64,000 nucleotides of DNA. Source: Octopus vulgaris (Eukaryota). Positions 57,794 to 63,871 of this stretch are shown one piece after another. The notes beneath the pieces were generated by a model. It was not told the origin of the DNA. It was given only the letters and a program-made list of their open reading frames with translations, and did not search any database. The position numbers and the translations under genes are program-made. Location: positions 15,314,001-15,378,000 of the forward strand of contig OX597831.1 of assembly GCA_951406725.2 (NCBI GenBank). The letters run 5' to 3'. Each line of letters opens with the position of its first letter. Within the stretch, counting starts at the first letter, position 1.

Positions 57794-57801
57794 TATATAA
57801 G
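57794..57801 (+). promoter_or_regulatory. Candidate TATA box of the small secreted protein gene
   Basis: TATATAAG 94 bp upstream of the ATG at 57888, with no intervening ATG. Confidence 0.55.
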
Positions 57802-57887
57802 ACAAGAGTAATTGAAGGCCAACACCACACTATCTCAACAATCATCTTCTCCTGTCTGAGCACCAAAGTTTCATTCCCAAATTCAAT

Positions 57888-57924
57888 ATGAAATTCGTTG
57901 TATTTCTCTGTCTCCTTATTGTCG
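57888..57924 (+). CDS. Exon 1 (signal peptide) of a small secreted six-cysteine protein
   Basis: ATG AAA TTC GTT GTA TTT CTC TGT CTC CTT ATT GTC G|GTAAGT = MKFVVFLCLLIV, with a consensus phase-1 donor. Confidence 0.8.
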
Positions 57925-58128
57925 GTAAGTTATCTGAGAAAGTTATTTCCTTTCGTTCGAAATTGAATCGCAGCTTGGAGTCGAATTCCTTAACATCAAT
58001 TTGATTATCAACATATTTCTAAAAGGACACATCTGTGCACACTTACACAAAAACTTAGACACAAAATTACATATATGCATACAAACGTAGACATGCTTAT
58101 ATATATATATAGAGAGAGATAGATATAT

Positions 58129-58164
<36 letters not shown>

Positions 58165-59133
58165 GCATATACCTGCATACACACATACTCACACGTATAT
58201 GTTCTATTGTATATTATACAGAATTAAATGCGTGTATGTGTGTGCATGCACAGTCAAATACGGTTTTTATGTTCCTGAAACTCCAAATGTGTTGGCCAAG
58301 CTAGGCTTCCATATAAAATCAAAAATTATAATGGGGGAACCATATTTATTTCAATGATGGATCATGAAAAGAAATGGCACTTTCATCTGTTTTGCTTTTT
58401 GTGGGAGAGGGGTTTATAGTTGACTCCCAAACAAATTGTAAGGTGATTCAAACATGCATGTATTTAGCCCTAAGCAAGAAGAAACGAGAGGCATGTCCAC
58501 AACAGATATTTTCATTTTTACAAAGCAATACCATCCATTCTTGACCATGTATGGGCAAACCTTCTCGGGAAAGGGCCGCATAAGGCATGGTTCATTAACA
58601 AACAAACCACTTCTAATTTTACGATGGGGTTAAATTTAGAAAGTTTGGAAAGAAACAGTTGGTCCATAACTCGTCGCTATGGTTTCTTTATCGCTCAAGA
58701 TCTCTTCCAATGAAACACAATATTTAGCATAACTAAAACCCAATCCGACGAAATCTGTGACCTAGTCCCTTATTGAGCGCCTACAACTCTAAGGTGACAC
58801 CAACACTAGGCAATTAATTTGGCAGCTGCTATCGTGTTGCTGCTGCTAATAGGGATGTCCTGGTCTGCATTTAGAAACGTAACACGTGATTCATTAACGT
58901 AAATGTAATAATAGATGCGCCTCCGTTCCTGTGCCCCGTGGATTCTATCTGTTCCGCCACTCTATCTTCTCCACCGCGGCAATAATATCGTATCTTACTA
59001 ACAGGTGCTGCTTTCTTGTAAACTCTGCTCCCCAATGTTTGACTCATTCTATTCTCACCCGATTTCTTTTGTCGACACCCTTCTGACCCTGCACTAATCA
59101 CCACAACCAATCTTTCCTTCATTACATATATAT

Positions 59134-59500: not shown

Positions 59501-60225
59501 AATAATGAAAGATATGTATTTATATGTATGTATATGTATGTATGTATGTATGTATATATAATCTCTCGCATAACTTGTTGGAAAATGTTGGGTCTCAGCG
59601 TATGTTTATTCGGAGCGACTCCTCCGACTGTTTTGAACATTGAATTTGTCTTTGTGGACTTATTTAGACGTTATTTCCGATCTTCCATTAATACCGACTT
59701 CCAGTGTTTTGCATTGGAGAAGGCATTTCTTTTTTTCCAACGGAGGGCTCACAAAACATTAATCAGCCTCTGCATATTTTGTTAGAGTACAATATAAACC
59801 AAATTCGTTTCAAATATTTATGTAGTGATGTGGACTTTTAAGTGGCATACGAGTCTTGAAACATATTTTACTATTTCGTTAATTGATGTCCGTAAAGTTG
59901 GATTGTAGTCTAAATGTTGCCTATTGAACCGTGTCTCATCCATTTAGCCATACGATCTTCAGTGTTGCATATTTCCATAAATGAGAGTGGCAGTGCAGCA
60001 TAAAGGAGACATGATTTAATGTGAGGTATATATAATTAAAACTGATAATTTAGCACAAATCACTACAGATAAATCGCAGATTATCTTTCAAAATCAAGAA
60101 TAAAATTAAATATATTCTTGACAATAAGAAATACATTTTATGCGCAGTTTTTAAGTGTATTATTTTACTTCGCGTTTATAATTAAAAAAATTAATCAACT
60201 GAAATCTACAAATTTTCAATTTAAG

Positions 60226-60325
60226 GTTCTGCTTTATCCCACCAATGTACCGACAAAGCTAAGAAGATCTGTTTGGATGCTATGAGCACCTACCCCAATG
60301 TCAATACAAAAATCCAGACATGTCG
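60226..60325 (+). CDS. Exon 2 of the small secreted six-cysteine protein
   Basis: ttttcaatttaag|GT TCT...TGT CG|GTAAGT, 100 nt, phase 1 to phase 2, GSALSHQCTDKAKKICLDAMSTYPNVNTKIQTC(R). It completes the signal peptide (predicted cleavage ALS-HQ). Confidence 0.82.
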
Positions 60326-61532
60326 GTAAGTTTGATTTTACTAAAAAATCCCCGCATCATTTATCTCTAGATATTTCTATGTATATGTTATTTGCATCAT
60401 TACTATTTCTTGCAATCTCATTTTCACTATGGTTTACAAATCTGTCGTCCGATTTTGATACGGTTTTCTTTCGTTGTGTGTATTGCATAGTATGGACATT
60501 GCTCTAAATATTACGTGTGCGTTAAATGCTAGCGATATTTTGCATATTGTGGCATATTTATTATTCCTTTGGAATTTTGTTATGCATATATCCTCAAGTT
60601 TATAATCATTCAGAAGACTATAATAAAGTTTGATTCCGTTTCTAGTTCCCACGTTATATTTTGGATAATTTTCCATTTTATTTGGATATATAAATATCCA
60701 GTCAGCGTTATTTGAGATTGGTTATATCATCAAGATTGCTTATAACATTTCGTGCTGTCCTACTTAACATTCTTCCAGATAAAACATTTTTCGCAAAACG
60801 ATTTAAGGCAATAACTGATTGTCGTTGTATCAAATTCGATCAAGTCTTTGCAAGACAACATGATCATGGACGTCCTTCGTTTGCAAAAAAATACAACTTC
60901 CAGTTAAATAATACTACAATCAAAAACAATAACATTAGACCTAATTACAATCTCTACCTGCAGCACAGGTTAACCAAGAAGCAATTCGAGAGGTGCAATT
61001 TTATGTTCGTATATTCTGGCCTTTGATGAAGTTAAAAGCAAGATGGGTTACCCTAGGGTACGCCAAGCGCCCCTGTACGCCGATAGCTCTGGTAGATATT
61101 CATTCTCATGTAATTTGTCTTTGTCTTTAACATCATTGTATTTGAATAGTTTTCGGCTTCTATTACAGAATGGACGTCTCGAAAATGTAATATACCGCAT
61201 ATACCGGGTGTTTATCACGAAAACTATGGCTATTAAACCTACCCTGTTTTGAGACATCTCATTTTCATACAATATAACTACCGATGAGAACTGAAGTTCT
61301 AAACTGCATTCTCATGGCAAAATAAATGTCGATAAAAATTTCCCCGTATCATCTAAAACAATACTTTATAGAAACTGACATCTATGACTATTTCTGAATA
61401 AATAATCTAGGGAAAGAATATGATGGAAGTATGTGAAATGAAACTGCAGTATTAAAAAATAGATTCACGATTGAAATACATTATATAGAAACACTTCAAA
61501 ATGTAATAACCTGATAATTTCTTCATTTACAG

Positions 61533-61621
61533 TCGTCTCCACATGTTCCGCTCCTGCATGCAACCTAAAGATGCAGCCTGCCATAAATACTTCGATGATG
61601 TTATCGAAATGGAATGTAGCG
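61533..61621 (+). CDS. Exon 3 of the small secreted six-cysteine protein
   Basis: tttcttcatttacag|T CGT...AGC G|GTAAGA, 89 nt, phase 2 to phase 1, RLHMFRSCMQPKDAACHKYFDDVIEMECS. Without splicing it reads on GKIFI* to 61638. Confidence 0.8.
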
Positions 61622-63871
61622 GTAAGATCTTTATTTAATAACGCCATTGGTTCTTTACTTTCATACATCGTTTTCTGCTGATGTCTGATTTGTCTTCCGA
61701 TAAAATAAACAGCAGTATTCGACGTGATCGAATACAGTCCCCCAACACGAATTATATTGCGTTGAGCAAATATATGAAGCCCTTGCAGCGACGGCCTAGC
61801 AAATTCGTTAGGGCGTCGAACAAATTGCTAACGCCATTTCTCTCGGTTCTTCATTTTCTTATTAAAAACCGGAATTAAGTCAACATTGCCTTTCATCCTA
61901 ACATAAAGTACCAGCATAGGATTTATTCACTTTCGTTTTTACAAGGTGTGTAAAATAAAATACCATCCGAGCACTCGACTCAGTGTACTAAAATTATCCT
62001 AAGATTGGATTAGTTTATTACGTGACCCGCAATCAAAGCTAGCAGAACATCGAGGATGTAACCTGGAGACTGAACTTTCTGTGCCAGCATGTTTCTACTC
62101 ATCATATTCAGCTATGCAGTTTGAATCAACAGTAAATTCAGTACCTTGATCAATAGGAAAACTTAGCATCTCTTTTGAAACTGAACTTATCATATTCTCT
62201 CGACATTACGGACGTTAACCCCCAACACTGTAACCACTGAACCATGTGCGATAATTAGTATTAACACAGATGAATGATTTAAAGAAACGCTGCTTCCTGA
62301 GATCTTAATATTTTATTGTGTGGACAGCGCATCATTTTTGTCTGATCTCCTATATTACGTGTGGTCTCATTCAGTGTCCTATGGCATCCGGGTAGATTAT
62401 CTACTATTAAATGTCCAATGGAAACGATAATGATATATTACAACAGTAAATCTCCAATGAAATACTGTTGACATAAAGAAATATTTCTTCCTGTAATATT
62501 CAAAAGACTATTTTTGAAAACTGTCCGATACGCTACTGTAATTTATTAGTAATTGCACGCACTTGCTTAGAGAATTAACAAAACAAACTATCTTACTATC
62601 TTAGAGTAGAGGTGACGCTCTCTGCAAGTCTCCATAAATAACCTCTTAGAGATGCGAAAACTTTAACTCCAAACACATGTGTCTTACCTGTTTTGGGATT
62701 CTGATGACATCATTATGCACTTGTAATGGCGTCTTGTTTTATTTCAATCACTTTCTTTTGTAAAAAAGCAAATATTCTTCTTCCTCACTGTCTATTGATG
62801 GGTTATACAGCATATCATATCATATATATATATATGCGCCTGAAATCATATTGTGTATTCTCTCTAACACAGCGATGTATCACTTGTGTGATTGCCAAAC
62901 TATTACTAAGTTTCGATTTGTCAGAGACATAAAGCACATACATAAACACACATAAGCACACACACACGTTTATTGTTTATTGTGTTTATTGTTGCGTATG
63001 TTCTCTGTCAGTGTCTGGGAAGACAAATTCTTTCTATTCAAACATTAGATTAACACCATCTTTCTTAAAATTGCCTTTTTGTGTTGCCCTTTTCATTGAT
63101 CATTTTTGTATTGGATACACATGTACACATAAGCAAGCACACACACACACACACACACTCACATACATACAAACCCACACACACTTACACAAACAAACAC
63201 ACATACACAGATATATACATATACATACCTATGTATGCATGTATGTATGATTGTAATGTCTACAAAAACAAAACACAGTTCTCTCTACACCACGCAACAA
63301 ATCATTCTGCCTGACTAATATATAAATTCTCTGCGGGAAAGTGCCAACGTCGTTTATATTTACAGTTCTGCTGTATTTACTTTCATTGTTACTTCTTTAC
63401 CACGTTCAAGTTATGTATTTATGCAACAACACAAGTAATAAGTTTATTTATATTCTTTAGCCATTATTGCATAATTTGCATTTTATAGTCTCTAAATCAG
63501 TTTTCGATTTTGTATTTGATTCATTTTACAATTACCAAACAAATGACAGAATAATGGTCATACTAATGATATGATTTCCTCAATAGTAATTGACTACGCA
63601 TGTCGTATCCTATTTATTCGTAAACGATATTGCAATTTATATTATTATCCAGTAATCGATTATAAGACACGACCCTCATTTTCATAATTTCCTCATTATT
63701 TCCATTCACCAGAGACGGAGTAATTAGAAAAATATCTTGTGTATTAACGTTCAAATTATTCTTTTATTACCTCATTATAATATTCTATTGATTGCTTCCT
63801 TTTAATCTGGTATGCTAATAATTATCGACCTAACTTATCTCGAACGTTCTAATTATAATACTATTGCCTTA

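Follow-up and report, generated by a model that had tools for sequence, protein, structure and literature searches.

Introduction

Neuritin (CPG15; PF15056) is a conserved low-copy vertebrate gene whose product combines a signal peptide, a six-cysteine domain with C-x8-C-x7-C spacing and a glycosylphosphatidylinositol (GPI) signal. The Ly6/uPAR proteins are encoded by clustered small genes in which a signal exon is followed by cysteine-domain exons and a GPI tail; Ly6/three-finger proteins have a beta fold, 8-10 fixed cysteines and a variable surface, and include soluble anchor-less offshoots and multi-domain forms. In cephalopods, novelty is tied to clustered expansions, those of protocadherins, zinc fingers and chemotactile receptors among them. 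Here we describe a gene for a small, putatively secreted six-cysteine protein of Octopus vulgaris, found in a stretch of 64,000 nucleotides (nt) of assembly GCA_951406725.2 (contig OX597831.1, positions 15,314,001 to 15,378,000, forward strand; this whole stretch is called the window), and the tandem array of related units to which it belongs.

The N-terminal domain of the RGM proteins (RGM-N; PF06535; RGMA/B/C, PDB 6z3m, 6z3j, 4uhz) consists of three helices held by three disulfides, and in RGMB the residues Gly101, Leu103 and His106, in the RGD/RGN loop and helix 3, are needed for the binding of bone morphogenetic proteins (BMPs)/GDF5 (passages of PMC7354924). The secreted proteins of cephalopod salivary glands have been sorted into 44 superfamilies, of which 27 are without an assigned function, and superfamily SF1 lies in tandem arrays (parts of bioRxiv 10.64898/2026.02.02.703354). 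The octopus proteins described here resemble these superfamilies in being short, apparently secreted and cephalopod-restricted, and SF1 in being arrayed in tandem, while they differ from them in the GPI-like tails of many array relatives. The parts of the preprint's main text that were available name no RGM-like or neuritin-like family.

The gene is real, spliced in four exons, and annotated but unnamed. We propose, with a probability of roughly 0.45, that it is a soluble member, under purifying selection, of an array of diversified extracellular binding proteins in the octopus, with secretion, anchoring and target as putative elements of that proposal.

Gene structure and transcripts

Exons 1 to 3, all on the + strand, are bounded by AG/GT, and their joined reading frame is free of stops and gives the mature cysteine spacing 7-16-8-7-11. 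Exon 1 (57824..57924) holds the 5' untranslated region (UTR), codons 1-12 and one base, within the predicted signal peptide; the ATG lies at 57888, so that the coding part (57888-57924) is 37 nt long and ends in phase 1. Intron 1 (57925..60225; phase 1, GT-AG, 2,301 nt) is followed by exon 2 (60226..60325; 100 nt), which encodes the end of the signal peptide and Cys1-x7-Cys2-x16-Cys3. Intron 2 (60326..61532; phase 2, GT-AG, 1,207 nt) falls in the codon after Cys3, and exon 3 (61533..61621; 89 nt, phase 1) encodes x7-Cys4-x7-Cys5-x11-Cys6 and is the unit counted across the array. Intron 3 (61622..64000, phase 1) leaves the window. Exon 4, also on the + strand, starts at G000:C18:15,379,047 (window position 65,047), 1,047 nt past the window end, is preceded in the genome by a pyrimidine tract and CAG, and supplies the five C-terminal residues, the stop codon and the 3' UTR.

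Both internal junctions, 57924/60226 and 60325/61533, are present in three of four public runs (X1, X2 and X9, from three studies and two organisms), either as joints or as loose ends that match the next exon. The first is a joint in X2 and X9 and a loose end in X1, the second a joint in X1 and X2 with loose ends in X9, and loose ends after 61621 in all three runs splice exon 3 to the fourth exon. As these contigs skip GT-AG introns, the three runs are taken to be RNA, although their records carry no such label. Depths at the joints range from 3,612 to 20,695, against 2-20 on intron contigs, a difference of about 1,000-fold, contig depth being a poor measure of expression level. The exons were uncovered in run X13, and eight further runs under the same species label held next to no words of the gene; neither result was taken as evidence of tissue specificity.

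An initial annotation of the window, made from its letters alone, had described three exons with phases 1, 2 and 1, GT-AG introns, a TATA box and the cysteine spacing, all of which are as it stated. It placed the gene end at 61638, wrongly, as this is a stop met only by reading through intron 3 from exon 3. It also considered the gene missing from the list of open reading frames (ORFs); the gene is indeed absent from that prokaryote-style list, but NCBI/UniRef already lists its 80-residue product (P0004) under the name 'Hypothetical predicted protein [Octopus vulgaris]', an entry that agrees with the four-exon model.

The TATA box, TATATAAG, was recognized from sequence at 57794..57801 (+), 94 nt 5' of the ATG. 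It starts 30 nt 5' of the furthest upstream contig end (57824), a position that is only approximate as the start of the 5' UTR, since contig ends cannot establish a transcription start. The box may function in this gene; as a family-wide trait it was rejected, a TATA at matching distance being present in two of the 23 array members with a signal exon found, against a background rate of 9%. Also rejected was a hydrophobic ORF behind the AG at 63366, a candidate GPI-tail exon, because no contig joins there. Intron 1 carries a high-copy interspersed repeat (window ~59,130-59,450) that is represented by thousands of contigs in all four runs and is likely to be a short interspersed nuclear element.

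The encoded product

The 80-residue precursor has a hydrophobic N-terminus (maximum Kyte-Doolittle value 3.8 over 9 residues), and removal of the predicted signal peptide would leave a mature peptide of 63 residues, in which six residues follow Cys6, the last five forming a polar tail. An AlphaFold2 model of the mature peptide (mean per-residue confidence, pLDDT, 89; predicted TM score 0.74) contains helices only. A beta-rich fold, which the initial annotation would have counted against its reading, is thus not what is predicted; the peptide is modelled as a helical bundle, likely stapled by three disulfides. A wide VIA search with the mature model returned generic helical proteins, none above Z 6.0, and the 50 listed include no RGM chain; a model that included the signal peptide gave no useful fold match. 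P0004 alone found nothing usable in Pfam, PDB sequences or the ESM Atlas, and a tailed member used as query in the ESM Atlas returned generic helical rows only.

A tandem array on C18

Exon 2 matches ten further places on C18, and 1.92 megabases (Mb) around the window were therefore examined. When exon 3 was sought as acceptor-led units, 73 of 187 candidates scored at least 10 bits and 68 at least 12, against none of 131 in reversed DNA, and the 257 kb upstream contained no unit; because family members served to build the profile, the reversed control protects against chance and not against circularity. The units lie on both strands (34 on +, 39 on -). The window gene is the leftmost of them, at the start of an array that runs from 15.37 Mb and spans at least 1.78 Mb, as matches reach 17.154 Mb, with weak ones as far as 17.30 Mb. 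The figure of 68-73 refers to domain units and not to genes, since P0007 joins two units and some may be dead.

The array units have a common exon plan, and their cysteines and aromatic core are fixed while most other positions vary. The 7/16 spacing is kept in 46 of the 53 exon-2 units; Cys6 is present in 64 of 73 units, as is a Phe or Tyr four residues after Cys5, and most other positions show 10-18 different residues. Net domain charge ranges from -5 to +6 (41 units). In a middle subgroup (C18:16.33-16.70 Mb) the third intron is in phase 0 and not phase 1, and in five members at C18:16.76-16.96 Mb (L180, L186, L191, L195 and L200) exon 3 is doubled internally (182-185 nt), producing an eight-cysteine domain. 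Many retroelement ORFs lie between the units. Blocks at C18:15.62-15.68 Mb and 15.73-15.75 Mb are duplicated with identical exon translations, which reflects either very recent copying or an error of assembly. Exons 2 and 3 both start x6-7-C-x7-C and align to each other (alignments A1, A5 and A7, in which exon 3 is stacked on exon 2 and which were left out of searches and folds), a hint that the six-cysteine domain may itself have arisen by internal duplication.

A second locus, at C6:103.91-104.69 Mb, contains genes made of tandem copies of the six-cysteine domain and matches the multi-repeat relatives. Four O. vulgaris models were looked up (CAI9735827 to CAI9735841), and P0009 and P0042 resemble fusions of several units; from these we infer that the annotation of this species under-calls or fuses the array. 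The initial annotation had proposed a search of cephalopod genomes for paralogues, and these are numerous: about 70 units in the C18 array, the C6 locus, and a matching cluster in Octopus bimaculoides.

Distribution of the family

At E<=0.001, a profile search of 1.84 billion representatives found 38 proteins; of the 30 whose names were looked up, 29 are Octopus (vulgaris, sinensis, bimaculoides) and one is 'Campylobacter fetus'. The latter, P0038 (WP_234446203.1), is a fragment on a 322-nt contig and a divergent family member; it is likely to be cephalopod complementary DNA contaminating a bacterial assembly, and its source may be another species. None of the 30 named relatives is filed under squid or any other mollusc outside Octopus, groups whose proteomes may be thin in the database searched, so that this absence carries little weight. 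The single-domain members of O. bimaculoides have adjacent locus numbers and cluster on a single 55.6-Mb contig, the nine-repeat protein P0006 lies on another contig and is the counterpart of the C6 locus, and many of the counterparts in this species have RefSeq models. The initial annotation's alternative suggestion, of a lineage-specific secreted peptide family, is supported, the family being named only in Octopus and its secretion predicted. Pfam did not bear out the UniRef labels 'CHCH Cx9C' (P0005) and 'GDNF/GAS1' (P0011).

By a simple hydropathy filter, 20 of 39 proteins have a C-terminus shaped like a GPI signal, with a hydrophobic stretch preceded by a polar spacer, and tail exons were located in the O. 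vulgaris genome for eight members. Venom peptides do not typically carry GPI-like tails. P0043, a neighbour of the window gene, also has a short polar tail, and a candidate exon suggests the same of the relative at 16.20 Mb.

No description of the family was found in the full-text literature searched, as far as listings and the starts of abstracts go, and six family identifiers led to no paper. No family member appears in the available passages of PMC7354924, bioRxiv 2026.04.09.716377, bioRxiv 2026.02.02.703354, PMC12607849 and PMC7656900, nor in the supplements of PMC7693380, PMC12607849, PMC9712504 and PMC10337964 (for the last, 20 of 32 places, all unrelated proteins). Neither two short motifs nor four accessions had a match in the one supplement of a paper on an O. 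vulgaris salivary database. The family may nonetheless already figure among the unnamed novel genes of O. bimaculoides or the salivary superfamilies.

Relation to RGM and neuritin

Searches by fold, Pfam and profile repeatedly give RGM-N as the family's best match, for the most part without reaching significance. In Foldseek, ranks 1-7 of 94 are N-terminal chains of RGMB, drawn from three entries and none of them significant (E 0.97-1.9, probability 0.38-0.63, TM 0.51-0.56). A VIA comparison with RGMB gives Z 4.5 (55 aligned; root-mean-square deviation, rmsd, 3.3), which is no higher than for unrelated bundles and lower than the Z 6.0 of a designed one. Pfam RGM_N appears at E<=1 in 15 of 36 relatives, two of which exceed the curated cut-off, both being multi-repeat proteins whose scores are summed over repeats; P0004 itself has no match at E<=10. 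The top three rows of the family profile against PDB are RGMB (E 0.15-0.26, 25 columns around Cys3-Cys5), while an exon-fragment profile found nothing among PDB sequences. On octopus RGM-N the family profile scores 19.3 bits against 6.8 +/- 3.6 for shuffles with the cysteines fixed, nine of 2,000 of which score as high, and shared helical periodicity could explain part of this score; hhalign gives a probability of 6.7% and E 0.0055. The odds that the two domains are remote homologues appear to be about even.

The likeness to RGM-N includes a putative three-helix, three-disulfide form (the helices here being those of the model), C-x8-C-x7-C on helix 2, a predicted extracellular location, GPI-like tails in octopus relatives, and the best Foldseek and profile-to-PDB rows. 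Octopus RGM-N has the spacing 4-22-8-7-21, so that only the central C-x8-C-x7-C is common to both; the outer spacings are 7/16/11 in the window gene and 4/22/21 in RGM, with Cys5-Cys6 spans of 11 and 21, respectively. The domain of the array family is interrupted by an intron, whereas that of the octopus RGM gene, on C2, is not; the latter is the sole RGM_N match over the cut-off in the genome, against about 70 variable copies here. The window gene is also without the C-terminal neogenin-binding domain. At the sites corresponding to the BMP contacts, Gly is found in two of 28 family members and Leu in one (Phe in 21, Tyr in 5), and at the His106 site His is absent from the six most frequent residues, which together account for 22 of 28. 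The octopus RGM (L037, C2:46,683,999-46,684,205) keeps the Gly and Leu of the BMP loop and has Tyr at the position of RGMB His106. Membership of the RGM family is not supported, given the spacing, the BMP-contact residues and the separate gene on C2. What endures of the RGM-N-like reading in the initial annotation is the helical fold and a weak, recurring likeness; the outer cysteine spacing, the BMP residues and membership do not agree with it.

Neuritin shares with the tailed relatives a signal peptide, six cysteines and a GPI-like tail, and with the family as a whole the central cysteine spacing. The window gene, by contrast, has no hydrophobic tail. Pfam NRN1 has no match in P0004 or in the genome, and none was shown at E<=1 for the 36 relatives (for two of these proteins, among the best 5 of 9 families); nor did neuritin chains appear in fold searches with the mature model, which did not cover the AlphaFold DB. 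The proposed membership of the neuritin family is thus not borne out, and the DAMSTYP motif on which the likeness had in part been built is confined to three of 53 exon-2 units, Tyr-Pro recurring in 28. The window gene does have the phase-2 intron behind its third cysteine that the initial annotation put forward as a putative common feature with NRN1.

The Ly6/uPAR three-finger proteins and the toxins derived from them follow the same logic as the octopus family. The octopus model has helices only and six cysteines, in contrast to the beta three-finger fold with its 8-10 cysteines, and on the strength of that model the resemblance is one of analogy and not homology.

Selection and divergence

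For the window gene and its two closest relatives omega is 0.17, clearly below 1 (twice the log-likelihood difference, 2dlnL, 31 against omega=1), and the protein is therefore constrained. Among recent paralogues, in 29 non-independent pairs, median dN/dS is about 1.05, and exon identity is lower than flanking-intron identity in 19 of the 29. Compared with 12 putative orthologues in another Octopus species (a set in which the species of P0005 was inferred from its accession and P0028 and P0029 were included without a species look-up), signal exons are 85% identical and exons 2 and 3, cysteines excluded, 68-69%.

Proposed function and alternatives

The proposed product is a soluble, 63-residue helical peptide with three disulfides, formed once the signal peptide is removed. 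The approximately 70 tandem units would constitute a diversified set of extracellular binders, in which a fixed disulfide-helix scaffold carries a variable face. Many members would be GPI-anchored on an epithelial surface, while the subgroup of the window gene, lacking the anchor, would be secreted in bulk, in the manner of mucus or saliva; the window gene would be a soluble member with abundant transcripts. Each peptide would bind its target via the variable face where the animal meets microbes or prey, in a mode like that of three-finger/Ly6 proteins, which use a beta scaffold. The scaffold itself may have descended from an RGM-N-like domain that lost its BMP site. A more far-reaching version, which we regard as tentative, is that an RGM-N/neuritin-type three-helix domain was freed from its parent in octopus and expanded to a 70-plus-gene, 1.8-Mb repertoire of GPI-anchored or secreted recognition proteins, with a part in defence, venom or sensory tuning. 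Such a repertoire, as yet undescribed in cephalopods, would be a helical counterpart of the Ly6/three-finger proteins that evolved independently of them.

The proposal draws on the deep spliced contigs, the 68-73 exon-3 units against none in the reversed control, the fixed cysteines and aromatic residue amid variable positions and charge, the confident helical model, the hydrophobic C-termini of 20 of 39 proteins, the higher identity of signal exons than of mature exons between species, and omega values of 0.17 for the window gene's trio and 1.04-1.44 in three recent clades. Several observations weigh against the proposal of a diversified binding-protein array. Codon models for recent clades of 6, 4 and 5 genes give omega values of 1.44, 1.04 and 1.08, which are indistinguishable from 1 (2dlnL 1.07, 0.01 and 0.00), so that positive selection elsewhere in the array is plausible while relaxed drift fits as well. 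Tail exons are 71% identical across species and are thus no more conserved than the mature exons. The GPI-like tails were called by hydropathy, and two of the 20 (P0009 and P0012) look like intron read-through. Tail state is not clustered on the tree, which is largely unresolved and does not show whether tails are ancestral.

It is improbable that the array consists for the most part of debris left by near-neutral duplication, with a few functional genes in its midst, the window gene among them, although the omega values near 1, the 19 pairs with exons less identical than their flanking introns, the near-identical block duplications and the many retroelement ORFs between units would all fit such an account. 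Open frames, splice sites and cysteines are nevertheless maintained across very divergent units, signal and tail exons are intact, and many of the O. bimaculoides counterparts have RefSeq models. A higher, though still low, probability attaches to a role as modulators or identity tags on neural or sensory cell surfaces, in the manner of neuritin or Ly6/lynx, with anchored forms tuning receptors or wiring and soluble forms acting as diffusible signals. The architecture of signal peptide, small cysteine domain and, in about half of the relatives, hydrophobic tail is that of neuritin and Ly6, and both the retention of putative one-to-one orthologues between Octopus species and the recurring RGM-N likeness are in keeping with it. 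Against this stand the lack of an NRN1 match, the very deep spliced contigs, which suit bulk secretion somewhat better, and, as a slight indication, the failure of four id stems of O. sinensis family loci to match in three supplements of an octopus brain cell atlas whose id scheme is unchecked.

Reproductive recognition or pheromone proteins, on the sperm surface or in the spermatophore or oviducal gland, or as a water-borne cue, are a rather less probable alternative than the neural one. The mature exons diverge fast between species, anchored and soluble forms are both present, and Aplysia and Euplotes use small helical peptides with disulfides as pheromones; the cysteine spacing, however, appears to differ from the patterns of attractin and Er-1. 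Least probable of all, and very unlikely, would be a free decoy of RGM-N type, occupying the type-I receptor site on BMP/GDF ligands. This candidate draws on the RGMB-N chains at the head of the Foldseek list, the RGM_N matches in 15 of 36 relatives (two over the cut-off) and a genome that encodes BMP2/4 and other TGF-beta ligands, but the equivalents of RGMB Gly101/Leu103/His106 (passages of PMC7354924) are not kept, Cys5-Cys6 spans 11 residues and not 21, and seventy variable copies would poorly suit a conserved ligand.

Other features of the window

An ORF fragment on the - strand (window 43,552-43,875) resembles what we take to be the GIY-YIG endonuclease of a Penelope-type element. A TAT microsatellite occupies 984 nt at window 17,801-18,784, with 328 copies and a 97% match.

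Implications

The main interest of the locus extends beyond the single gene to an apparently undescribed cluster of about 70 units, so far seen only in Octopus. The family offers a compact natural disulfide-helix scaffold, its disulfides being predicted. If the link to RGM-N is true, a developmental co-receptor domain would have been reused as a variable binding scaffold, in parallel to the path from Ly6 to three-finger toxins.

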